Source of the DNA: a virus
Taxonomy: Duplodnaviria; Heunggongvirae; Uroviricota; Caudoviricetes
IMG/VR virus record: IMGVR_UViG_2703719365_000027
Coordinates: 1-9,701 of that record
Strand: one strand, 5' to 3'
DNA: 9,701 nt
Positions 1 to 9,701 of the stretch are shown in pieces. The notes under the pieces were generated by a model that was not told the DNA's origin, searched no databases, and was given only the letters and a program-made list of their open reading frames with translations. The position numbers were made by a program, and so were the translations under genes. How positions within the stretch are numbered: position 1 is the stretch's first letter; each line of letters begins with the position of its first letter.

Positions 1-948
1 TCACTCTCCTTTGATGCGAATGCCAGCAAGCCAGTTTCTTATGCCGATATATTCAGCGTTCCTGAAACCGCTTTTTACATATATAAATGGCAAGCGAAGA
101 TTGTGACCATTGACTGCCAGGTAGTCTTTACAACCCTGTTCGGTGAAACAGCAGGTAACGAATTCATCAATATCTTTCACAGCAACGCGCCGCCATTTTT
201 CTGGTGGCTCTCGAAAGTTTTCATGAAGTAGCTCGAGACGACGACTATGGCGTTTATTGGCTTCATTGCCATCTTCGTCAACCCAGACAATCCGGTCATG
301 GTCATAATCAGCATCAACAACGATTTCGCGCTTTTGATACACACAAAACATGGGATCTGACGTTATTCGATTGTCCTGTGTTCGAATATTTTCACCGATG
401 ATGCCAAACGAATCTGGTGCAGATTTTGTCTGCATCTCTTCGATACGTTCAGCCATCGCAGCACACTCTTCAAAGTTGCTTAATGCTTTTCGCTCCCATT
501 CGGCGCATTGTTTTTCCAGTTCTGCTATGCGCTTACTTCCATCCGCGATTACTCCCTCGTAATATTCACGCTGCTCGTTGAGTTTTGATTTTGCTGCTTC
601 AAGCTCAACGCGCAGCTTCCCTACCGTAAGCGCAATATCCTCGTTCTCCTGGTCGCGGCGTTTGATGTATTGCTGGTTTCTTTCCCGTTCATCCAGAAGC
701 GCCAGCGCAACATTTGGATTAAAGGCAGCAATAAATTCAGCGTTTGCGTAAGCCTGAGCATCTGTTTCAACCAGGCAGTTAACATGACATTCTGCAATCA
801 CGCCACCGGGTTCTCCTTTCCATTTTTGACAAACAAAAACTCCTGTTATATTCCCATGCTGATTGCCCGATGTATGCCCTACGATGTAGCATCCTTTAGT
901 TGCTTTCTCTGCTGCTTCACGCAGCGCCTGATAGTCAATCTCGCTCAT
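1..948 (-). CDS. Ea22-like (ead/Ea22 family) prophage early protein, 315 aa
   Basis: Complete minus-strand ORF with ATG at 948 and TGA at 1-3. N-terminus MSEIDYQALREAAEKAT resembles the conserved N-terminal signature of ead/Ea22-like prophage proteins (from memory). Central coiled-coil-like charged region. ATGA start/stop overlap with the upstream ORF at 945-948. Confidence 0.6.
   Translation of the reverse strand: MSEIDYQALREAAEKATKGCYIVGHTSGNQHGNITGVFVCQKWKGEPGGVIAECHVNCLVETDAQAYANAEFIAAFNPNVALALLDERERNQQYIKRRDQENEDIALTVGKLRVELEAAKSKLNEQREYYEGVIADGSKRIAELEKQCAEWERKALSNFEECAAMAERIEEMQTKSAPDSFGIIGENIRTQDNRITSDPMFCVYQKREIVVDADYDHDRIVWVDEDGNEANKRHSRRLELLHENFREPPEKWRRVAVKDIDEFVTCCFTEQGCKDYLAVNGHNLRLPFIYVKSGFRNAEYIGIRNWLAGIRIKGE
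4..29. repeat. 26-bp repeat CTCTCCTTTGATGCGAATGCCAGCAA (copy A) at the 3' end of the Ea22-like gene
   Basis: 25 of 26 identical to 1751-1776. Encodes the C-terminal AGIRIKGE and the AAAGGAGAG ribosome-binding site for the next gene. Confidence 0.7.
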
Positions 949-1121
949 TCATCGCCCCACTCATCACAATATGCTTCGACCGCAGTTTTCCCTGCTTCAT
1001 AATCATCACGCCATGCTTCAGCATCAGCGGCACTTCCACCGCGTAACTCTGCATAATCCATTAACAGTTCATGCCATTCTTCAAAACTGGCGTTATATTT
1101 AGTTGAACCAAAATCAGCCAT
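945..1121 (-). CDS. small highly acidic hypothetical protein, 58 aa (MADFGSTKYN...)
   Basis: ATG at 1121 is preceded by GAGGAAGGA at good spacing. The track start at 1139 has no Shine-Dalgarno. 16 Asp/Glu versus 4 Lys/Arg. Stop overlaps the Ea22-like start (ATGA). Confidence 0.45.
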   Translation of the reverse strand: MADFGSTKYNASFEEWHELLMDYAELRGGSAADAEAWRDDYEAGKTAVEAYCDEWGDE

Positions 1122-1296
1122 TTTGTCCTTCCTCTTCATCTTTTATTTCGTGGTATGAGTAATTGCAGTGGTTAAAGAAAATTCCTTTTGCTTCGTCATG
1201 AATTTCATCAGGTGTTGCGTCATCATCTACTTCGAATACATCCTCAAAATCTCCACCAGCTATTCCCGTTTCAATAATTATTTTGAATTTTCGCAT
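1114..1296 (-). CDS. small highly acidic hypothetical protein, 60 aa
   Basis: ATG at 1296, TGA at 1114-1116, overlapping the next start by 8 nt (ATGGCTGA). 17 Asp/Glu versus 5 Lys/Arg. No strong Shine-Dalgarno, so confidence is modest. Confidence 0.4.
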   Translation of the reverse strand: MRKFKIIIETGIAGGDFEDVFEVDDDATPDEIHDEAKGIFFNHCNYSYHEIKDEEEGQNG

Positions 1297-1389
1297 TTCA
1301 CTACCGCCATTTCGAACGGCCTCCTGATGTTCTGAGGGTGCAGAAATCCCTCCGGTTAAGGATTAAATTTTTAACAGTGCTAAATTTAA

Positions 1390-1746
1390 TTATTCAGTTC
1401 TTGATTTTGCCGCCCTGCGTATCCGCGCTTTCGCGTTACGCTCAATCTGAATTAGCTTTTCTATATTTTTCCGCCTTTCCTGTTCCTCCTGTCGCAATAG
1501 CCTTACGTCATCTGCCAGTCTGGTTTCTCTTTTCGCCACAGAGAGCATCCAGTCAAACGGCTCCACAACTGCACCGCAGATTTTACAACGGACCTGACGC
1601 TCTTTTTCGTCAACCCGGACAGAGGCGTGATGACAATATGGTCTTTCCGATGGCTCATAAAGAAAATTAACCTGATTACGTGGGTCATCCTCTTTTACCG
1701 GAAATAAAACAATATTACTTAACTCATCTTCTGGTTTGATTTCCAT
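1390..1746 (-). CDS. hypothetical zinc-ribbon-like protein with basic coiled-coil tail, 118 aa
   Basis: ATG at 1746 is preceded by AAAGGAGAGGAG. The track start at 1779 is GTG with no Shine-Dalgarno. Cys/His cluster (CHH ... CKIC) followed by an Arg/Lys/Glu-rich C-terminus. Start overlaps the upstream ORF by 23 nt. Confidence 0.5.
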   Translation of the reverse strand: MEIKPEDELSNIVLFPVKEDDPRNQVNFLYEPSERPYCHHASVRVDEKERQVRCKICGAVVEPFDWMLSVAKRETRLADDVRLLRQEEQERRKNIEKLIQIERNAKARIRRAAKSRTE

Positions 1747-2188
1747 GCTCCTCTCCTTTGATGCGAATACCAGCAACACGTAGTACGTGCTCTAAATCAG
1801 CCAGATAAATCCAGCAGCCATTTTCTTTAGGTATCATGACGTGGCGCTCATCAGCATTTATCGGATGTCCATATCGAAGGCCGTAGCGAGTCGGTAAATG
1901 AACTTCCCGCGCTTCCAGCTCTTTAACGCGCTCCTCGAGTGCGTAGACTCTGCATTGTTCTTCATCATCAATCAGATATAACCCTAGACATTCGCTTTCT
2001 ACCCAGCCACCGAAATCATGATCGTAACGCTCACACGAAAACTCACCATCGCTGTCCTTTGTTGGAATGGTGTAACTGTCTAATGGGCCACCATACGTCG
2101 GTACATTTCCCAATTTCGGATGCTCAATCCACATGAAAAATGCACGTCCGGTTATTGGGCAAATATCTGGTCGCCATTGGTTACTCAC
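1724..2188 (-). CDS. hypothetical protein whose C-terminus resembles the Ea22-like C-terminal module (DUF551-like, tentative), about 154 aa
   Basis: ORF open from 2215. I prefer GTG at 2188 because AGGAGG lies 6 nt upstream. C-terminal ...VAGIRIKGE is shared with the Ea22-like ORF (...LAGIRIKGE), and a YDHD motif is also shared. Confidence 0.5.
   Translation of the reverse strand: MSNQWRPDICPITGRAFFMWIEHPKLGNVPTYGGPLDSYTIPTKDSDGEFSCERYDHDFGGWVESECLGLYLIDDEEQCRVYALEERVKELEAREVHLPTRYGLRYGHPINADERHVMIPKENGCWIYLADLEHVLRVAGIRIKGEEHGNQTRR
1751..1776. repeat. 26-bp repeat (copy B) at the 3' end of the 1724-2188 gene
   Basis: 25 of 26 identical to 4-29. Identity stops abruptly on both sides. Confidence 0.7.
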
Positions 2189-2480
2189 TGTTTGCCTCCT
2201 GGAAAATAACTGCATGCCCCAGCTTCTCCGCCAGTGCCAGTTCTGCCTTAGCGCCTGCCGACCGCTGCCAGCCTTTCAGCATGTAAATCGCATCCACGCA
2301 GCGTATCATTGACATGCAAATATCCATGTAGTGCGGCTGTGTCAGCCCGTCCGGAAGTACTGCCGGGTTTAAGACTGTATGCCCTTCCCGTTTCAGTTCC
2401 TCTTCCGCCTTGTGGAACGCCTCACGGTTGAAATTTTTATACCCGGTCATCGGACCGGCGATATAAACCCTCACCCTCAC
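2181..2480 (-). CDS. DUF4406-type protein (nucleoside 2-deoxyribosyltransferase-like fold), 99 aa
   Basis: GTG start at 2480 with AGGAGGTGA 5 nt upstream. GTGA overlap with the upstream stop. N-terminal VYIAGPMTGY...N motif is typical of the deoxyribosyltransferase-like/DUF4406 family (from memory). Confidence 0.55.
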   Translation of the reverse strand: MRVRVYIAGPMTGYKNFNREAFHKAEEELKREGHTVLNPAVLPDGLTQPHYMDICMSMIRCVDAIYMLKGWQRSAGAKAELALAEKLGHAVIFQEANSE

Positions 2481-2869
2481 TCCATCACCTCCTGAAAATT
2501 ACCCCGATAGAACGCCAGCACACGCTGCATAACTTCGCTCTGGCGGCACTCACGACAAATTATGTTCTGCCGTCTGTTGTAACGACGTATTTCTCCGTCA
2601 GGTAACTTTCGAATCAGTGTCGGGTCAGCAGCCTTCTCCGGTGTCTTACGCCATACGCGATACGCCTGCTCTGATAGAAATACCCCGCAACCAGAGAGCC
2701 AGACATCACCACTGGCCGCAAGCGCACCAGATAAACGACGAATAGCGGTCTTACTGACACCCGTTTTATCTGCCAGTTGTCGAAAAGTTTCTCGTCCGCT
2801 CAGGCGCACGAATTCCACAATGCGCGCCCTCACTTCTTCCCGCTCTTCTGGTGTAAATACTTTTGCCAT
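2477..2869 (-). CDS. hypothetical protein with probable winged-helix segment, 130 aa
   Basis: ATG at 2869 with GGAGG 5 nt upstream. The track start at 2884 is TTG. Segment FRQLADKTGVSKTAIRRL is HTH-like. Cys pair CRECRQ. Confidence 0.5.
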   Translation of the reverse strand: MAKVFTPEEREEVRARIVEFVRLSGRETFRQLADKTGVSKTAIRRLSGALAASGDVWLSGCGVFLSEQAYRVWRKTPEKAADPTLIRKLPDGEIRRYNRRQNIICRECRQSEVMQRVLAFYRGNFQEVME

Positions 2870-2884
2870 AAGCGCCTCCGGCAA

Positions 2885-3655
2885 TCACTTTTCCGACACA
2901 ATACGACCGGATGAATCGACAATCTGCCGAACAATATCCCGGTGCTTGTTCAGCTCCCGCAGCGCGGCGCAGACACGCTCCCACTTCTGAACCTGACCTT
3001 TTGCCCGGCGCAGCTCGCGGTTTGCCATTTGCAGCGATGGTAAAATCAGGTCATTGGCTCGCGTTTCAGTGAACGATGGTAGTAACTGCACAATGTCCCC
3101 CACAGTATCTGTTTTAATTTCTTCCTGTGTTGCCGCTTCCCGGACTGGTAACGCAGCACCTGCTGGCTGAGGAAAGGCCTTACCATCACTTTCCGTTACC
3201 AGCGCGGCTTTCGGCTCTGCTGGTAAATTATCGCCCGGCATGCAGTAACGAAATCCACCGTTCTGATTAACGCGTGCCAGCCGCCCCGTTGCGGTTACCA
3301 CCGCCAGCGTGGAAGCAACCTTGCGAGTACTGACACCGAACTTACCCGCTATTTCTTCACAGGTTTTAGCCCCCTCCTGAGCGATAAACTCAATCATCAT
3401 GTTAGCGCTAACTTTTGGAGCGACCTCTTCGGTCAGCATATTCTGTGTTTCAGATTTTACTGGCCGCTCTTCGGTTACCCGGGATTCACCTTCGACAGCC
3501 AGAAACCAGGTGTGACCCGTTTTATCAACAACGCCATTTTTTTTGAGCTCCCACAGTTCGTTCAGCACTTCTTCACGACTGATATCAAGTCGAGCAGCAA
3601 GTTCTATGGATGTGGCTTTTCCCATTGCTTTCAGTGCGTCAAAAACAGTCTCCAT
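2885..3655 (-). CDS. phage-associated winged-helix DNA-binding protein (DUF1627-like, tentative), 256 aa
   Basis: ATG at 3655 with GGGAGA upstream. The track start at 3688 is TTG. N-terminal ~60 aa look like a winged helix ([28 protein letters not shown]); a second HTH-like stretch sits mid-protein; C-terminus is coiled-coil. Immediately downstream of the DnaC-like gene. Confidence 0.5.
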
Positions 3656-3677
3656 TAAATTTTTCTCCCGGTAAAAA

Positions 3678-4424
3678 TTACTTCGCAATTCCTAGCTGGA
3701 CGACATTCGGACGCCAGCTCTCCCAGTTAAAATTCACCCATCGCCCGCCGTTCATGGTCATGCGATCCATAATCCGCTCGCCGAGCAATGTTTTCATGGC
3801 CTCATAGTTCAGGTTTGTCAGCATCCCCACGCTGCGCATCGAAGCTGTCCGGCGATCAACAATCTGGTGCAGTACCACCTGCTCGTTTTTCGTCTCACGC
3901 TGGATGCCAATTTCGTCAAGAACCAGGAGGTCCACTTCGCACAGTTCACGCAAAAATTTTTCGCCTGACTGCCCGTCGTCATAGCTGGCGTGCAGGGCGC
4001 TCATAACATCAGCCACGGTAACCACAATCACTGTCTGACCGTCTTTCAGCAGGCGATTCCCGATAGCTGCCGCTAAGTGATTCTTCCCGGTACCAGGTTT
4101 TCCGCTGAACGCAAAATTTGTATACCCAGTCATCAGTTCATCAGCGATGGATTTCGCCTGGCTTAACGCGTATCGCTGGCCGTCGTTCTGCACCTGGTAA
4201 TTCGCAAACGAGCATTTACGGTGCAACGGCTGGATGCCAGAGCGATTCAGAATTTTTTCCACCCGCAACTGACGATTCAGACGGTTGATCTCCTCGCAAC
4301 GTTTCTGGCCTTCAGTAAGTTGCCACTCACGCCACTCCGCAACCGTTCTGAATGGGGCGGTTACATGTGGTGGGGTCAGTCTGCGGATACGCTCCAGAAC
4401 GCCGCCTGTCGCAATATTTTTCAT
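3678..4424 (-). CDS. DnaC/IstB-like AAA+ helicase loader, 248 aa
   Basis: Walker [12 protein letters not shown] and Walker B LLVLDEIG. Size and motifs fit phage DnaC-like loaders. Sits directly downstream of the replication initiator gene. Confidence 0.85.
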
Positions 4425-4430
4425 GGTCTG

Positions 4431-5219
4431 TTACCCCCTGAAGCCTGGCGGGATCGCACTGTCCGGCAACGAGACGGTGTTAACCTGTCGGAGCAACGTC
4501 TCAGGCCGAACACCTTTCGGTGCGAACAAGCCCTGGTATTCATTGGCGATGCTGTGTCGAATCACCTGCTCAGGTGTAAAACCCTGCTGACGGAATTTTT
4601 CCAGTTCCCGTATCGCCCCGTTAGCGCCCTGCTCCGTTCGAATCGGTTTTCGCAATGCCTGCCTGAACTGAACCCACTCATGCCAGAGTGTTTCCGGCAA
4701 CCAGTCAGGCAGCTCGATAGCCTCCGGCTCGAATTTTTTAGACGCTCGTTTTTGGCGAGGGGGATTTAGGGGGAGATCAGTATTTATATCTTCCTCTTCC
4801 TCTTCCTCTGGTAACGCTTTTTGATCCGTTTGTGTAACGCTGGCAGCGTTACCTTTTCGTTTCAGTTCGCGTATTTTTGTAACTCGCTCGTTTGTAACCG
4901 CCCGTTTTTTAGAGCTTTTCCCGTTATGACGTTCAAAGTTAGGTAGAGAAAGCCCACCGTCATTTTCGACCAGCCATCCAACCTGAATTAACGCATCAGC
5001 AAAACCAGCCATAAAAGTGATGCGATCTATTGCACTTTTTGTAACGCCGCGAGCGTTACAATCTGCATTACCGTCTATCATTTGTTGATCCGCCCATGCC
5101 CAGAAGCGAATAACCTTCCCTAATGCGGCATCTGGATCAATATTCAGAATCTCAGCAAGCCTGAATATTTCCGGCTTATCCGGCGTAATAACCTCGAGCT
5201 TTATCCAGTTTGAAGCCAT
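4431..5219 (-). CDS. phage replication initiation/primosomal protein (C-terminal region DnaT-like, tentative), 262 aa
   Basis: ATG at 5219 with AAGGTGA upstream. Sits ahead of the DnaC-like gene as in lambdoid replication modules. Internal poly-Glu linker (EEEEEED). The gene body carries palindromic repeats (see repeat features). Confidence 0.6.
   Translation of the reverse strand: MASNWIKLEVITPDKPEIFRLAEILNIDPDAALGKVIRFWAWADQQMIDGNADCNARGVTKSAIDRITFMAGFADALIQVGWLVENDGGLSLPNFERHNGKSSKKRAVTNERVTKIRELKRKGNAASVTQTDQKALPEEEEEEDINTDLPLNPPRQKRASKKFEPEAIELPDWLPETLWHEWVQFRQALRKPIRTEQGANGAIRELEKFRQQGFTPEQVIRHSIANEYQGLFAPKGVRPETLLRQVNTVSLPDSAIPPGFRG
4834..4852. repeat. 19-bp palindrome GTAACGCT-GGC-AGCGTTAC (copy 1), with extra half-site GGTAACGCT at 4810-4818
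   Basis: Perfect 8-bp arms. Lies inside the replication initiator coding sequence. Confidence 0.7.
5041..5059. repeat. 19-bp palindrome GTAACGC-CGCGA-GCGTTAC (copy 2)
   Basis: 7-bp perfect arms. Lies inside the replication initiator coding sequence. Confidence 0.65.
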
Positions 5220-5232
5220 TTGTTTTCACCTT

Positions 5233-5251
5233 GTAACGCTCGCAGCGTTAC
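5233..5251. repeat. 19-bp palindrome GTAACGCT-CGC-AGCGTTAC (copy 3)
   Basis: Perfect 8-bp arms. Intergenic, 14 bp upstream of the replication initiator start codon, directly abutting its ribosome-binding site. Confidence 0.7.
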
Positions 5252-5296
5252 ATTTAACTGATACCGAACAAAACAATCCGGCACGATTAATTTCAA

Positions 5297-5719
5297 TCAA
5301 TGCACTACGACAGAATCGCCGGGCGACCCACCACCGCTGAAATGTGCTTTCCGGTAAACGGCCTGGACTGCATCATCATGCGCATCAATTGCCGTACTCA
5401 ACGCTTCCTGCGCCGCCAGTAATGCACGGCGTTCCAGGGTATCGAAGATGCAGAGTCGGTGACGCAGCTCGCGCGGAATAATTGCCAGAACCGCAGGGAT
5501 CAGTTTCTGAATTTTTTCCCTTTGCGCTTTCGTTTCACCTTTCAACCAACGGTGATAGATATTCTGCTGATTGTTCCAGTCCTTGCCTGGTACAAGGGGC
5601 AATTCGCCGCCCCCCTGGCGCAGATATTCTTCAGTAATTGCGTTAGCGACCCACGCCTGCCCTTTTTCGGCTGCCAGGGCTAACAACACTGATTCGATGT
5701 GCTCATGCCTGATTTTCAT
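5297..5719 (-). CDS. CII-like regulator, YdaT-family candidate, 140 aa
   Basis: ATGA overlap with the Cro-like gene stop (5716-5719), implying translational coupling. Second gene of the rightward-equivalent operon, same size as Rac YdaT (from memory). Confidence 0.5.
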   Translation of the reverse strand: MKIRHEHIESVLLALAAEKGQAWVANAITEEYLRQGGGELPLVPGKDWNNQQNIYHRWLKGETKAQREKIQKLIPAVLAIIPRELRHRLCIFDTLERRALLAAQEALSTAIDAHDDAVQAVYRKAHFSGGGSPGDSVVVH

Positions 5720-5958
5720 GAATCAACCGCTCCTATGCTGTTTTCGCTATGCTTACCGTCTGGGGGGAATACATCGTCAAGTCCACAATGAGCGCCAAGC
5801 CGATTAAGGGTAGAAACAATTTTTCTGCACTCCTCTAGTCCAGGGGTACGAAAATTTGCTTCGTAATTTGCCAGTCGGCTTTGTATCCACCCTAACTGAA
5901 CAGCAAGTTGTCTTTGAGACAGCCCAAGCTGTTTTCGATATGTTGAAATTTTGTTCAT
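5716..5958 (-). CDS. Cro-like XRE-family HTH regulator, 80 aa
   Basis: ATG at 5958 with GGAGG 6 nt upstream. HTH LGLSQRQLAVQLGWIQSRLANYEA. Divergent from the repressor gene across a 96-bp operator region. Confidence 0.7.
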   Translation of the reverse strand: MNKISTYRKQLGLSQRQLAVQLGWIQSRLANYEANFRTPGLEECRKIVSTLNRLGAHCGLDDVFPPDGKHSENSIGAVDS

Positions 5959-5978
5959 TGAAAACCTCCGATGACAAT

Positions 5979-6007
5979 TTTAAACACATCCTGTGTTATA
6001 TGGTCAA
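5979..6007 (-). promoter_or_regulatory. candidate PR-like sigma70 promoter for the Cro-like operon (TTGACC-17 bp-TTTAAA)
   Basis: Reading the minus strand: -35 TTGACC (plus 6002-6007), 17-bp spacer containing the AACACA-N3-TGTGTT operator, -10 TTTAAA (plus 5979-5984). The resulting leader is short (~14 nt). Confidence 0.4.
5983..5997. promoter_or_regulatory. operator-like inverted repeat AACACA-TCC-TGTGTT
   Basis: Perfect 6-bp arms with a 3-bp spacer inside the divergent intergenic region. The same motif family recurs at the rightward early promoter (6559-6573 and 6582-6596). Confidence 0.5.
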
Positions 6008-6029
6008 GCTGTTTTGTGTTTTATGTAAA

Positions 6030-6042
6030 TCACGATTCGTGA
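6030..6042. promoter_or_regulatory. perfect 13-bp palindrome TCACGA-T-TCGTGA just upstream of the repressor ribosome-binding site
   Basis: Seen directly. It is a different motif from the AACACA/TGTGTT sites, so it may bind a second regulator. Confidence 0.4.
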
Positions 6043-6054
6043 TACAAGGATGCA

Positions 6055-6474
6055 ATGGAAAAAGAAAACGAAAAAATTGCCGCTAGTAGGCTCAATGACA
6101 AAATTGCAATGCGTCTTAAAGAGCGCAGGCAGAAGCTTGGTTTATCTCAAGGAAAACTTGCTGAAATCTGCGGATGGACGCAATCGCGTATAGGTAACTA
6201 TGAGGCGGGCAGCAGAAATGTTGGAGTGCATGACGCTGTCGTATTGGGAAAGGCACTTGGCATATCTCCTCCTGAGCTCCTCTTTGGAGAACAGGAATCT
6301 TCTGAATTGTGGTTAAATGAATCCCAACGAAAACTTCTTGAGTTGTTTAACCAGCTACCGGGCTCAGAACAACAACGAATGATTGAGCTATTTGAAGTCC
6401 GGCTAAAAGAAATCGATGAGTATGTAGAAAAATATTTGAGAGGCAGGCTTAAAGATAATCCCCTACCGGAGTAA
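6055..6474 (+). CDS. prophage repressor, XRE/cI-like HTH without peptidase domain (RacR/DicA-type), 139 aa
   Basis: ATG at 6055 with AAGGA upstream. HTH LGLSQGKLAEICGWTQSRIGNYEA. No S24 peptidase Ser/Lys motif and too short to carry one. Divergent from the Cro-like gene and followed by an intrinsic terminator. Confidence 0.8.
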   Translation: MEKENEKIAASRLNDKIAMRLKERRQKLGLSQGKLAEICGWTQSRIGNYEAGSRNVGVHDAVVLGKALGISPPELLFGEQESSELWLNESQRKLLELFNQLPGSEQQRMIELFEVRLKEIDEYVEKYLRGRLKDNPLPE

Positions 6475-6503
6475 TGATCTTGCTATCACAGTAATATGCC
6501 AAT

Positions 6504-6530
6504 CAGCCCGCTATCAGCGGGCTTTTTTTG
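6504..6530 (+). terminator. intrinsic terminator after the repressor gene
   Basis: Stem AGCCCGC / GCGGGCT (7 bp) with loop TATCA, followed by TTTTTTT. Confidence 0.75.
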
Positions 6531-6558
6531 TACCATCATCATATGACACCCACCCTAA

Positions 6559-6573
6559 AACACATTTCGTGTT
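6559..6573. promoter_or_regulatory. operator-like site AACACA-TTT-CGTGTT overlapping the -35 of the rightward early promoter
   Basis: Same 6-3-6 geometry as the site at 5983-5997, with 11 of 12 arm positions matching. Confidence 0.45.
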
Positions 6574-6600
6574 GACATAAGAAAACGTATTGTGTTTAAT
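6572..6600 (+). promoter_or_regulatory. near-consensus sigma70 promoter (pL-like): TTGACA-17 bp-TTTAAT
   Basis: -35 TTGACA at 6572-6577, exact 17-bp spacer, -10 TTTAAT at 6595-6600. A second degenerate operator AAAACG-TAT-TGTGTT (6582-6596) overlaps the -10. Drives the ydaF-like to recE operon. Confidence 0.6.
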
Positions 6601-6780
6601 AAGCATATCCAAACAACGCCCCACCAGAGAACGGCAGGACAATACCTCGAGTTATCCAGCCACTGAACAGGGCTAAGTAGCCAGCCTGAGGCATACGAAC
6701 ATGACGGCAGTTGTTGATTGATACAAAGCGCAGTAGATAAAACGTTCCGCCACCCGGCGTTAAGGGGAAATGAGGTCAAC

Positions 6781-6933
6781 ATGGATACTATCGATCTTGG
6801 CAACAACGAATCTCTGGTATGTGGCGTGTTTCCCAATCAGGACGGCACATTCACCGCCATGACGTATACCAAAAGCAAATCGTTTAAAACCGAAGCTGGC
6901 GCACGTCGCTGGCTTGCCAAAAATACCAGCTAA
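6781..6933 (+). CDS. DUF1391-type small protein (YdaF/YdfA-like), 50 aa
   Basis: ATG at 6781 with GAGG 5 nt upstream. MDTIDLGNNESLV... resembles the small proteins that follow the repressor in the Rac and Qin prophages (from memory). Preceded by a ~174-nt untranslated leader. Confidence 0.6.
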   Translation: MDTIDLGNNESLVCGVFPNQDGTFTAMTYTKSKSFKTEAGARRWLAKNTS

Positions 6934-7114
6934 ACCATTTATTGGATTAATTCAATATTCTTGCTGTAGGGGTATAGCCGAGGCCACCAAAGCCCGGAGG
7001 TGGTGAAATAAAACCGGGCACAACACGAAGGCGCATTTCCGGTATCCATAAAGAGTCGGTCTTGTCTGTTAAATTTAAATGGTGGGAGTGCGCCTCCGGT
7101 TGTGAATAACAACA

Positions 7115-7178
7115 CTGCTGTGTGTAGTCTTGGCGGCATCAGTTTTTTCTTGAAGTTCGACTGATGTCCGCCCTTTTT
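7115..7178 (+). ncRNA. dicF: DicF-like small RNA candidate (5' end approximate)
   Basis: Sequence TTGGCGGCATCAGTTTT ... CCGCCCTTTTT matches the DicF 3' region as I recall it from the Qin prophage. Sits in a 420-bp ORF-free gap and ends in an intrinsic terminator. Confidence 0.5.
7132..7178 (+). terminator. intrinsic terminator (also the 3' hairpin of the DicF-like RNA)
   Basis: Stem GGCGGCATCAG / CTGATG-T-CCGCC (11 bp, one bulged T), 18-nt loop, then CTTTTT. Confidence 0.7.
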
Positions 7179-7353
7179 AAAGTGAATTTTGTGATGCGGT
7201 GAATGCGGCTAAGCGCACGCGGCACAGTTAAAAGTCATGTTAGTCCTTATTGGTTTGGGTGGGAAAGCCGACTGTAATTGTTAACTGGTTGCAGTCACCT
7301 GGAGGCACCAGGCACCGCATCAACAAAGTTCATTTGTAAAAATGGAGATAATT

Positions 7354-7575
7354 ATGATTGCACATCACTTCGGAACTGATGAAATACCACGTCAGTGTGT
7401 GACTCCTGGTGATTATGTTCTTCATGAAGGCCGGACATATATCGCCTCGGCAAACAATATTAAAAAACGAAAACTTTATATTCGTAACCTGACCACAAAA
7501 ACATGCATTTCTGACTGCATGGTTAAAGTCTTCCTCGGTAGTGATGGTTTACCTGTAAAAGCGGAGTCATGGTGA
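7354..7575 (+). CDS. kilR: KilR, Rac-prophage FtsZ-targeting cell-division inhibitor, 73 aa
   Basis: ATG at 7354 with GGAG 6 nt upstream. [46 protein letters not shown]... matches KilR as I recall it. Position ahead of ydaE-racC-recE is as in Rac. Confidence 0.75.
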
Positions 7576-7745
7576 TGGATAAGAAAATAAAATGTGCTTA
7601 CCACCTTTGCAAAAAAGACGTTGAAGAAAGCAAAACTATTGAAAGAATGCTTCATTTCATGCACGGAACTTTATCAAAAGACGAACCGAGAAAATATTGC
7701 AGTGAAACTTGTGCCGAAAAAAACCAGATGGCACACGAACTTTAA
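7575..7745 (+). CDS. ydaE: YdaE-like small zinc-binding protein, 56 aa (absent from the ORF track, below its length cutoff)
   Basis: ATG at 7575 overlaps the kilR stop (TGATG), with GGAG 8 nt upstream. Cys pairs CAYHLC and [24 protein letters not shown]... matches Rac YdaE as recalled. Confidence 0.6.
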   Translation: MDKKIKCAYHLCKKDVEESKTIERMLHFMHGTLSKDEPRKYCSETCAEKNQMAHEL

Positions 7746-7819
7746 TTAACTGACTATTCGAAACTGAATTTATGCCAGCAATGGCAGGGATTCACTCAAC
7801 CTTAATTAAGGAGAAAAAC

Positions 7820-8095
7820 ATGATTACCAATTATGAAGCCACTGTTGTAACTACTGATGACATTGTTCACGAGGTCAATCTGGACGGAAAGCGTATTGGC
7901 TACGTGATTAAAACAGAAAATAAAGAAACCCCATTCACTGTGGTTGATATCGACGGTCCATCAGGCAACGTTAAAACACTTCACGAAGGCGTCAAAAAAA
8001 TGTGCCTGGTGCACATTGGAAATAATCTACCAGCAGAAAAAAAAGCTGAGTTTCTGGCAACTCTGATTGCAATGAAATTAAAAGATGAAATTTAA
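7820..8095 (+). CDS. racC: RacC-like protein, 91 aa
   Basis: ATG at 7820 with AAGGAG 6 nt upstream. The track start at 7772 has no Shine-Dalgarno. Size and position immediately upstream of recE match Rac racC. Confidence 0.65.
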   Translation: MITNYEATVVTTDDIVHEVNLDGKRIGYVIKTENKETPFTVVDIDGPSGNVKTLHEGVKKMCLVHIGNNLPAEKKAEFLATLIAMKLKDEI

Positions 8096-8124
8096 AAAAA
8101 AGAAAGCCTGCACAGTGTACAGGC
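8093..8124 (-). terminator. hairpin plus U-tract oriented for minus-strand transcripts, between racC and recE
   Basis: Plus strand reads A-tract (8093-8105) then hairpin GCCTG-CACAGTGTA-CAGGC (8106-8124). On the minus strand this is a hairpin followed by UUUCUUUUUUUU. No U-run follows it on the plus strand. Confidence 0.35.
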
Positions 8125-8195
8125 CTGAGTGAAAAACCTGGGACATTTATTCATCACTCGCACTAAATTTTAATCTGAGTTGAGGTTAAAAAACA

Positions 8196-9701
8196 ATGAG
8201 CACTGACAAACAAAATTTTGCGTTACATTGCGACGCGAAAAATGAGGGCGCAAGAAAACGCCTCGGCATCAAAGGCGGCTTTTTCTGGACAGAGGCAAAA
8301 AAACTTTCTGTTGCGGTTTCACGCTGCATTGCTGCAATGGACGATGCTGGCTACGATGAAGATGACTTTAAAAAACCCGTTCGCGTAAATTTCCCCGTCG
8401 TGAATGACCTTCCACCGGAAGGCGTGTTTGATACTGAATTCTGCAACCGCTATGAAAAAGGCGGGGAAGATGGCATCACCATGATGGCTATATCCTTCAA
8501 TGACAACATCAACGGTGAAGATGCCACAACTGCTGGCGATGACAACGATGACCCGGACGGAACTATTCCGGATGATGTGGAGAAAAGCGAATCCCCGGAC
8601 AGCGACGATGACTGTTCTGAGTGTGAAATTCCCGTCGCCACTCTGAGCCTTACTCATCGCTTCCTTCACCTCTTCTTCTTCAGCAAGGATGAAGATGGAA
8701 AATACCGGCATCACGCCACACCAGAACAACGCAATAACGTGATCCGTATGGAGATGGACACAGAGGACAGTTACCTTCAGAGCCTGCTTACTGCTGTGCG
8801 CGCCGCACATCATGAACTGGATAAACTGACGAACTATCACCTTAGTCGCCTGGCTGAATCTGTAGGGAAAGCATTCCCCCACTCTGCAAATCATCGCATC
8901 AGCCCGGCTGAATTCGACAAGTTCATTTCCACCTGGATGAAAACTGACTACCTTGATCAGGGCCTGCTGACAAAAGAATGGCAGAACGGAAATTATGTTT
9001 CAGGAATTACCCGTACGCCTTCCGGTGCTAACGCTGGCGGCGGAAATATTACCGATCGTGGTGAAGGATTCAAACATGATAAGACATCACTCGCACGAGA
9101 TGTAGCCACCGGCGTTCTGGCCCGTTCAATGGATGTGGATATTTATAACCTTCATCCGGCACACGCTAAACGTGTCGAGGAAATTATCGCTGAAAATAAA
9201 CCGCCCTTTTCTGTTTTCCGCGACAAATTCATCACCATGCCTGGCGGGCTGGATTATTCCCGCGCCATCGTGGTTGCGTCCGTAAAAGAAGCACCAATTG
9301 GGATCGAGGTTATCCCTGCGCATGTCACTGAATATCTGAACAAGGTGCTGATTGAAACCGATCATGCCAACCCTGATCCGGAAATCGTGGATATTGCCTG
9401 CGGTCGTTCCTCTGCCCCGATGCCGCAGCGTGTAACAGAAGAAGGAAAACACGATGGTGAAGAAAAACCGCAACCATCTTGCGCAATGGCAGATAAACAG
9501 GCAACGGCTGAAACAGTGGAACCGGATGCAACTGAACATCATCAGGACACGCAGCCGCTGGATGCTCAGTCACAGGTAAATTCTGTTGATGCGAAATATC
9601 AGAAACTGCGGGCAGAACTCCATGAAGCCCGGAAAACCATTCCGCCCAAAAATCCTGTCGATGCCGACAAATTGCTGGCTGCCTCTCGCGGAGAATTTGT
9701 T
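8196..9701 (+). CDS. recE: RecE (exodeoxyribonuclease VIII) N-terminal and central region, 502 codons, 3' end beyond the window
   Basis: ATG at 8196 with GAGG upstream. Open frame with no stop to the window end, which is why the track omits it. Segments [32 protein letters not shown] and [66 protein letters not shown] match Rac RecE as recalled. All minus-strand ORFs in 8300-9573 are antisense artefacts. Confidence 0.8.

Follow-up and report, generated by a model that had tools for sequence, protein, structure and literature searches.

The 9,701-nucleotide stretch of viral DNA analyzed here (positions 1 to 9,701 of IMG/VR record IMGVR_UViG_2703719365_000027, Caudoviricetes), referred to as the window, was recognized by DNA searches as the replication module of a Rac-like E. 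coli / Shigella prophage. It contains three exact copies of a 19-bp palindrome, GTAACGC-N5-GCGTTAC, two of them within the gene of a 262-residue replication initiator and one just before it. The most likely reading is that these palindromes mark a replication origin of lambda style, but of a type not described before. Specifically, we put at about 0.7 the probability that they are the binding sites of the initiator's own N-terminal winged-helix-like domain (N-domain) and that together they form a lambda-type origin. This reading is carried by sites that recur at the same places of initiator genes across phyla, by selection acting on their DNA, by a strict association with the N-domain and by half-sites that change together with the initiator subfamily. 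No published description of the sites was found in the searchable literature, the coverage of which is incomplete, and earlier accounts may exist. The elements concerned are the following.

4834-4852, no strand: palindrome P1 (GTAACGCTGGCAGCGTTAC), initiator codons 123-129 in the interdomain linker; candidate site for a dimer in the origin core
5041-5059, no strand: palindrome P2 (GTAACGCCGCGAGCGTTAC), initiator codons 54-60 in the part coding for the N-domain; proposed auxiliary initiator site
5233-5251, no strand: palindrome P3 (GTAACGCTCGCAGCGTTAC), in the intergenic spacer between ydaT and the initiator gene, next to the AAGGTG Shine-Dalgarno sequence, with its end 13 nt from the ATG
4811-4817, minus strand: lone half-site, GCGTTAC on the gene strand, 23 bp past the proximal P1 arm and directly before the polypurine tract
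5065-5071, minus strand: degenerate half-site GTAATGC, 12 bp before P2 on the gene strand
4879-4900, minus strand: two degenerate half-site-like sequences, GAGTTAC and CGGTTAC, of uncertain status
4789-4809, minus strand: polypurine tract of 21 nt, AGAGGAAGAGGAAGAGGAAGA on the gene strand, encoding EEEEEED; proposed unwinding or loading element
4781-4788, minus strand: AT-rich octamer TATAAATA, which ends the conserved block, marks the mosaic junction with the C-terminal domain and is kept in Uetakevirus-type relatives
4431-5219, minus strand: initiator gene, 262 residues, phrog_2509 'replication initiation protein' (E = 7e-90)

Sites in the window and in related loci

The three palindromes lie exactly where an earlier note on this DNA had placed them, and shuffling puts them far above chance. 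With 0.88 expected, the 9.7-kb window has 11 copies of the 7-mer GTAACGC, a number that none of 200 shuffles reached, and seven of these occurrences fall within 4811-5251. A scan of the window for spaced palindromes returned the three exact copies and, at up to three mismatches, four against 0.24 expected. Two details of the note needed adjustment: its 8-mer, counted there seven times, is found six times as exact GTAACGCT or its complement (the copy at 5041 reads GTAACGCC), and the half-site it gave as 4810-4818 is present with a true span of 4811-4817. The half-site-like sequences at 4879-4900 coincide with conserved AVTN and RVTK codons and may reflect protein constraint only, since relatives carry CTTAC at this place. 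Four isolated exact copies of GTAACGC lie outside the origin region, at window positions 1433, 2024, 3148 and 8220 (about 0.9 expected in the whole window).

A profile of the N-domain (residues 1-135) was used to collect 80 genome loci, from Enterobacterales, Pseudomonas, Burkholderiales, Planctomycetota, Verrucomicrobia and others, and 80 viral contigs; homologues of the domain were found down to about 40% identity. Palindromes in these relatives were called at up to two arm mismatches, and positions were counted from the initiator ATG. Nearly all 80 genome loci carry a P2 equivalent at +136 to +172 and a P1 equivalent at +334 to +393, with a P2-to-P1 distance of 189-237 bp across loci. Pooled GTAACG/CGTTAC matches from these loci are concentrated at -100 to 0, +100 to 200 and +300 to 450 and amount to 0.28 per kb elsewhere. 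The earlier note had called for a search of related replication modules and had allowed for homologues that keep the protein and lose the palindromes; the search found them at the same gene positions, conserved as DNA, so that protein and palindromes are both kept. Four relatives at 68-71% DNA identity have both intragenic palindromes with identical arms and differing spacers, and they keep the block GCGTTAC-AAAAAG-(A/C)GTTACC-AGAGGAAGAGGAAGAGGAAGA-TATA(A/T)ATA. Equivalents of P3 occur at -32 to -44 in several genera of Enterobacterales (Shigella/Escherichia, Serratia, Winslowiella, Erwinia, Mixta, Yersinia and Pantoea), several of which have an extra direct half-site about 12 bp upstream of it, and no comparable upstream site was seen among the 80 genome loci in those from other phyla. 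About 70 near-identical viral contigs retain P3, their differences here and at the other sites being mostly confined to the spacers.

The P1 cluster (4811-4852) covers initiator codons 123-137 of 262, at the interdomain linker. In gene orientation, such a cluster typically consists of two direct and then two inverted half-sites (>> <<) that are 11-12 bp or 23 bp apart from start to start. The last half-site, GCGTTACC, is kept across phyla immediately before the purine run, which in relatives begins 1-2 nt past it, often exceeds any other in the 5.4-kb locus, and reads AGAGAAGAGAAGAGAAGA... in most phyla and AGAGGAAGAGGAAGAGGAAGA in this window. A polypyrimidine tract had been noted at 4786-4808, and it is indeed there, with the plus-strand run extending over 4789-4809. 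The T-tracts at 4853-4920 that the same note took for an unwinding element encode a conserved basic helix; the conserved element lies across P1 and comprises the tract at 4789-4809 and TATAAATA at 4781-4788. GC content drops to 0.40 at this block, with an AT skew of -0.5. The suggestion that an origin lies inside the initiator gene is strengthened, one cluster being placed at the interdomain linker beside a strand-asymmetric segment of lower GC, as in lambda ori. On the plus strand, P1 followed by CTTTTCGTTT (4834-4862) scores as similar to an intrinsic terminator on the antisense strand, the only such 'terminator' nearby; this score is probably an incidental by-product of the Lys/Arg codons before P1.

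The mechanism that we infer, comprising binding, origin firing, unwinding at the polypurine tract and roles for P2 and P3, would run as follows. The recognition unit would be the 7-bp half-site GTAACGC, two of which, inverted and 12 bp apart, would form a palindrome that binds a dimer. Further single half-sites would be used 11-12 bp (or 23 bp) away, a spacing at which the bound proteins would align on one face of the helix. The P1 cluster at 4811-4852 and the polypurine/TATAAATA segment at 4781-4809 would make up the origin core, where initiator dimers and monomers on the P1 half-sites would distort and open the adjacent strand-asymmetric polypurine/AT-rich segment. The P2 cluster (5041-5071), about 200 bp upstream, probably cooperates with P1 and could join it in one nucleoprotein complex, for example by looping. 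Host DnaB would be brought in by the C-terminal domain (C-domain), which bears the DnaT-like tail, and by the DnaC-like YdaV acting with it. Finally, P3 is probably an auxiliary or autoregulatory site of Enterobacterales only.

Several points weigh against an origin of this kind. The AT content of the polypurine tract is only moderate, the sites fall into separate clusters at distances of 190-240 bp, unlike the four tandem iterons of lambda, and no preferred helical phase between the P2 and P1 clusters was found among the 80 genome loci. P3 is not universal. A literature search, necessarily incomplete, found no experiment on any member of the family, and the data do not separate an origin from initiator-binding sites used mainly for autoregulation. 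In such a case, the initiator would bind the sites as operators of its own gene, acting as a transcriptional roadblock or by translational repression, and the true origin would lie elsewhere. Palindromes are typical of operators, P3 abuts the Shine-Dalgarno sequence, and the clusters are spread over 440 bp instead of standing in tandem. This possibility is further supported by the Rep proteins of iteron plasmids, which use inverted repeats as operators (PMC13028717). However, the clusters that are universal are intragenic and P3 is confined to Enterobacterales, whereas P1 is always coupled to the polypurine/AT-rich block at the domain linker, in a match to lambda ori. A promoter scan found no sigma-70-like site at P3, a point that may be set against an origin and against operators alike. 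Taken together, we consider it unlikely that the sites serve mainly as operators.

The initiator as partner of the sites

The initiator is composed of an N-terminal domain of an unannotated family (residues 1 to about 122), an acidic linker, a C-terminal domain common to K-12 YdaU and a DnaT-like tail, the boundary between N-domain and C-domain being visible from PHROG sub-matches and from mosaic junctions. Pfam searches with the 262-residue protein and with 51 homologues gave no match, and the N-domain is not covered by any Pfam or NCBIfam model. Its predicted structure has a helix-turn-helix and a beta-hairpin (winged-helix-like), and the peptide encoded by P2 forms a low-confidence loop in this model. 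Residues 244-262 (window 4431-4487, ...IPPGFRG) match the C-terminus of the E. coli primosomal protein DnaT (NF002770 positions 161-179), as do the corresponding residues of K-12 YdaU; judging by this match, the 19-residue C-terminus that the two proteins share may be a partner-binding tail.

A search with the DNA pattern only, two palindromes 170-200 bp apart, retrieved at least 120 viral contigs, and all 120 matches listed encode the N-domain at that place. The N-domain is the only constant partner of the sites: relatives differ in the C-domain, in which a DnaT domain may or may not be detected, and in the downstream gene, which resembles either DnaB or DnaC. Moreover, the sequence of the repeats follows the N-domain subfamily, with GTAACGC, GTAGAC and GTCCGC classes. 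The initiator of phage CP2 (48% identity) keeps GTAACGC half-sites; that of Raharianne (41%) has GTAGAC/GTCTAC at +141 to +183 and +357 to +389; and in those of epsilon15, phiPSA1 and RPZH3 (about 33%) the half-sites are GTCCGC/GCGGAC, at +54 to +105 and +333 to +395. Half-sites of another class are absent from each of these phages, and all of them retain the polypurine tract CCAGAGAAGAGAAGAGAAGA. In the YdaU of K-12 Rac, which has an unrelated N-domain, the corresponding places are taken by TGTTCAAACA and GATGTTCAA repeats. The 262-residue initiator had been listed among several candidate binders, and it emerges as the sole partner always present across loci.

The other candidates are encoded around the initiator gene, which is apparently co-transcribed with ydaS-ydaT; the genes of the module that bears the palindromes (initiator, ydaV and YdaT) are all on the minus strand, and the DUF1627 and DUF977 genes come after ydaV.

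3678-4424, minus strand: ydaV, DnaC-like helicase loader (Pfam IstB_IS21 and Bac_DnaA; phrog_50), immediately downstream of the initiator gene
5297-5719, minus strand: gene of YdaT (CII-like; PF06254, phrog_163), upstream of the initiator gene, given for context only
5716-5958, minus strand: gene of a Cro/YdaS-like helix-turn-helix protein
6055-6474, plus strand: gene of a RacR-like helix-turn-helix protein, divergent

With several helix-turn-helix proteins encoded nearby, the sites could be bound by another local protein (YdaT/CII-like, DUF1627, DUF977, RacR-like or Cro-like) or by a host factor, and 32 bp separate P3 from a sequence similar to a YdaT box. The operator published for YdaT is TTGATT-N6-AATCAA (PMC9986795), a motif that P1, P2 and P3 do not resemble. 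Sequences similar to it were found at 5283-5300 (ACGATTAATTTCAATCAA), between the ydaT stop codon and P3, and at 5709-5726 (CTGATTTTCATGAATCAA), at the ydaS/ydaT junction, as part of four matches at up to two mismatches against 1.0 expected. The flanking genes, however, are different ones in the loci examined from Planctomycetota, Pseudomonas, Burkholderiales and Akkermansia, the ten diverse genome loci for which flanking open reading frames were listed have neighbours other than those of this window, and yet nearly all 80 loci keep the sites. YdaT and the two winged-helix proteins DUF1627 and DUF977, which the earlier note had also named, are therefore unlikely binders. The half-site also changes along with the initiator subfamily, and a sequence-specific host factor common to these phyla is improbable. 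As a whole, binding by a protein other than the initiator appears very unlikely.

Selection on the DNA of the sites

Comparisons of codons and reading frames among relatives show that selection acts on the DNA of the sites, given that synonymous codons are fixed, that P1 is read in two frames, that the spacers are free to vary and that changes in the arms mostly break pairing and seldom compensate. The codon analysis of P2 was anchored on the protein alignment and was independent of the DNA match. At this place, Val is encoded by GTT in 71 of 75 cases, Asn by AAC in 73 of 73, Ser by AGC in 55 of 55 and the following Lys by AAA in 47 of 52, whereas the rest of these genes uses GTT for 26-35% of Val residues and AGC for 21-25% of Ser residues. 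Asn is preceded mostly by Gly, Cys or Ser (xGT codons) and Val mostly by Ser or Gly (xGC codons), as a constraint on the DNA predicts. P1 reads NAxSVT in 54 genes (frame 1) and VTxxAL in 12 (frame 0), while the third frame would give a TAA stop; in this window, the P1 palindrome and the half-site that follows it are read in different frames. Likewise, the purine tract is translated in different frames (PEEEEEED, PEKRREE and PREEKRRE), and Arg codons within it are AGA in 76 of 77 cases, even where genomic GC is about 60%, compared with 6% in the remainder of these genes. Insertions of 12 bp (four codons) duplicate half-sites, giving SNAKGNAKSNA in other members and DGNAD-CNARGVT here, where the GTAATGC half-site at 5065-5071 belongs to such a duplication and is inserted relative to other homologues. 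The information content is about 2 bits per arm position versus 0.1-0.5 bits at the spacer centre.

Of 144 family representatives, NAxxVT is present at the P2 position in 141, NAxxVT or VTxxAL at the P1 position in 120, and an E/K/R run of at least six residues in 114. The most recognisable peptide motifs of the family are imprints of DNA elements read in alternative frames. The earlier note was right to place the conservation at the DNA level, and the support for this comes from the comparative codon and frame data and not from the argument it had used, namely that the intragenic copies encode unrelated peptides: both copies share one reading frame (xGT AAC GCx xxx xGC GTT ACx), giving CNARGVT and GNAASVT.

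The same data bear on a role of the palindromes as mRNA hairpins, which the note had also raised, or as DNA cruciforms, controlling processing, stability or translation. Each copy folds into a hairpin of 8-10 bp, the segments around the copies fold more stably than their shuffled versions (z = -2.8 to -3.8), and P3 is right beside the ribosome-binding site. However, among 120 distinct sites, 98 arm changes are pair-breaking, 13 give G-U pairs and 5 are compensatory; unpaired direct half-sites are conserved too, and strict invariance of the arm sequence is not expected of a purely structural element. No Rfam match was found in the window. We therefore regard a hairpin or cruciform role as highly improbable. 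Least credible of all is that the repeats are a by-product of coding constraint (a repeated NAxxVT peptide) or of chance: P1 and P2 share a frame and encode similar peptides here and a GNAxxVT peptide is conserved in the family, but synonymous sites are fixed far beyond codon bias, P1 stands in the other frame in 12 genes, P3 is non-coding, the xGT/xGC residue pattern fits DNA constraint, and shuffles exclude chance.

Known origins, mosaicism and the initiator family

The proposed origin is similar to lambda ori in its central position within the initiator gene, where a DNA-binding N-domain (predicted to be one in this family) meets a C-domain that recruits the loader, and in that the loader gene follows the initiator gene. 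In both, repeated dyad-symmetric initiator sites are followed by a purine-rich AT segment (PMC7466680). In the lambda sequence that we examined, the four iterons occupy O codons 116-144 of 299 and an 18-nt purine run, AAAAGAAAAAAGAAAAGA, follows iteron 4. Extra repeats lengthen the protein in both systems, additional iterons adding 13 residues to the O protein of Stx phages (PMC7466680) and 4-codon units being added in this family. On the other hand, the convergent arrays here are made up of 7-bp half-sites spaced 11-12 bp apart, whereas lambda has four iterons of 18-19 bp. A second cluster is found some 200 bp farther upstream, within the part coding for the N-domain, and a third stands before the gene in Enterobacterales. 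The polypurine tract abuts the last site and is common to all specificity classes, and the motif is nearly unchanged across phyla. Membership of the initiator in the lambda O family was considered and rejected (hhalign probability 0.4%, no PF04492 match).

The Rac module of K-12 (ydaS-ydaT-ydaU-ydaV, with oriJ) has the same gene order and context, and the DNA of ydaV and of the C-terminal approximately 85 residues of the initiator is 94% identical between the two. Unlike the initiator gene of this window, that of YdaU is devoid of GTAACGC sites and has repeats of its own. In the K-12 Rac ydaU (locus L165, 2928-2999 and 3147-3243), TGTTCAAACA is found three times in the linker and GATGTTCAA or GATGTTGAA four times, two of them within the part coding for the N-domain. 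These repeats probably underlie the classical Rac origin, oriJ, which would then share the two-cluster plan. A DUF1376/YdaU-type N-domain was likewise rejected for the initiator, for which no Pfam match was obtained and hhalign of the N-domain profile against K-12 YdaU found no N-domain similarity. Because the N-domain of K-12 YdaU is unrelated and the repeats differ, the window is a mosaic with a different origin specificity.

This mosaicism is seen throughout the E. coli relatives. K-12 ydaU is common to the initiator gene only over the last approximately 290 bp, other E. coli ydaU genes (e.g., H34-H38 and H5) match up to about window position 4792 only, and Uetakevirus-type phages and one Klebsiella phage match 4781-5208 only, at 68-71% identity, joined to a DnaT-type C-domain. 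The mosaic junction is the acidic linker adjoining the palindrome at 4834-4852. Junctions of the E. coli relatives fall on the conserved origin block (window approximately 4781-4810), and conserved origin DNA may serve as a crossover point for domain shuffling. A further 'mosaic junction' at P2, in relative H33, was dropped since it proved to be a deletion pseudogene. In E. coli Combat13F7 (L293), the initiator is a pseudogene without its N-terminus that is fused to a truncated helix-turn-helix regulator, and the deletion ends at about window position 5070, beside the P2 cluster. Two near-identical loci from Shigella flexneri and E. coli (L005 and L006) have an initiator open reading frame of 210 residues and a shortened, interrupted polypurine tract (CCAGTGGAAGAGGAAGATCT); these copies have possibly decayed.

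The initiators of iteron plasmids (F RepE, R6K pi and pSC101 RepA) are of the winged-helix type, with half-sites in direct arrays and in inverted repeats. The sites described here resemble theirs in the use of one half-site in both arrangements and in having an inverted repeat near the start of the initiator's own gene (PMC13028717). By analogy, the inverted repeat near the initiator start may point to autoregulation. At bacterial oriC, the basal unwinding system consists of DnaA boxes followed by DnaA-trios, a purine-biased short-period repeat at which opening starts. The likeness, which is one of analogy only, is that double-strand sites are directly followed by a purine-biased short-period repeat on one strand, at which opening would begin; the protein is a different one, and the repeat here is GAGAA or GAGGAA and not the 3-mer of the trios. 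We tentatively suggest that recognition might have two parts, in which a variable winged-helix surface would read the half-site class and the P(N/R)F(E/D)xHNGxxAKxRA motif and basic helix, conserved throughout the subfamilies, would engage the equally invariant polypurine tract beside the last half-site, possibly in single-stranded form. If this somewhat doubtful scheme were true, the module would be a phage counterpart of the bacterial DnaA-box and DnaA-trio unwinding module, and NAxSVT and REEKRRE would be imprints of origin DNA and not functional peptides.

Profile searches returned 9,951 clusters (50% identity) of the initiator family at E <= 1e-3 and 7,095 at 1e-10. Its members occur in Rac-like prophages of E. 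coli and Shigella, in epsilon15-like and Xanthomonas CP2-like phages, and in prophages of Pseudomonas, Burkholderiales, Planctomycetota and Akkermansia. If the palindromes are indeed the initiator-binding sites of an origin, this would provide a sequence-level origin definition for a very large unannotated family of phage and prophage initiators (about 10,000 clusters), the origin could be located by motif search in thousands of prophages, and three origin specificity classes would be predicted. It would also account for mosaic junctions falling at this point of the gene. Finally, these genes would clearly exemplify a cis-acting DNA element whose conservation exceeds that of the overlapping protein and which dictates the apparent signature motifs of that protein.

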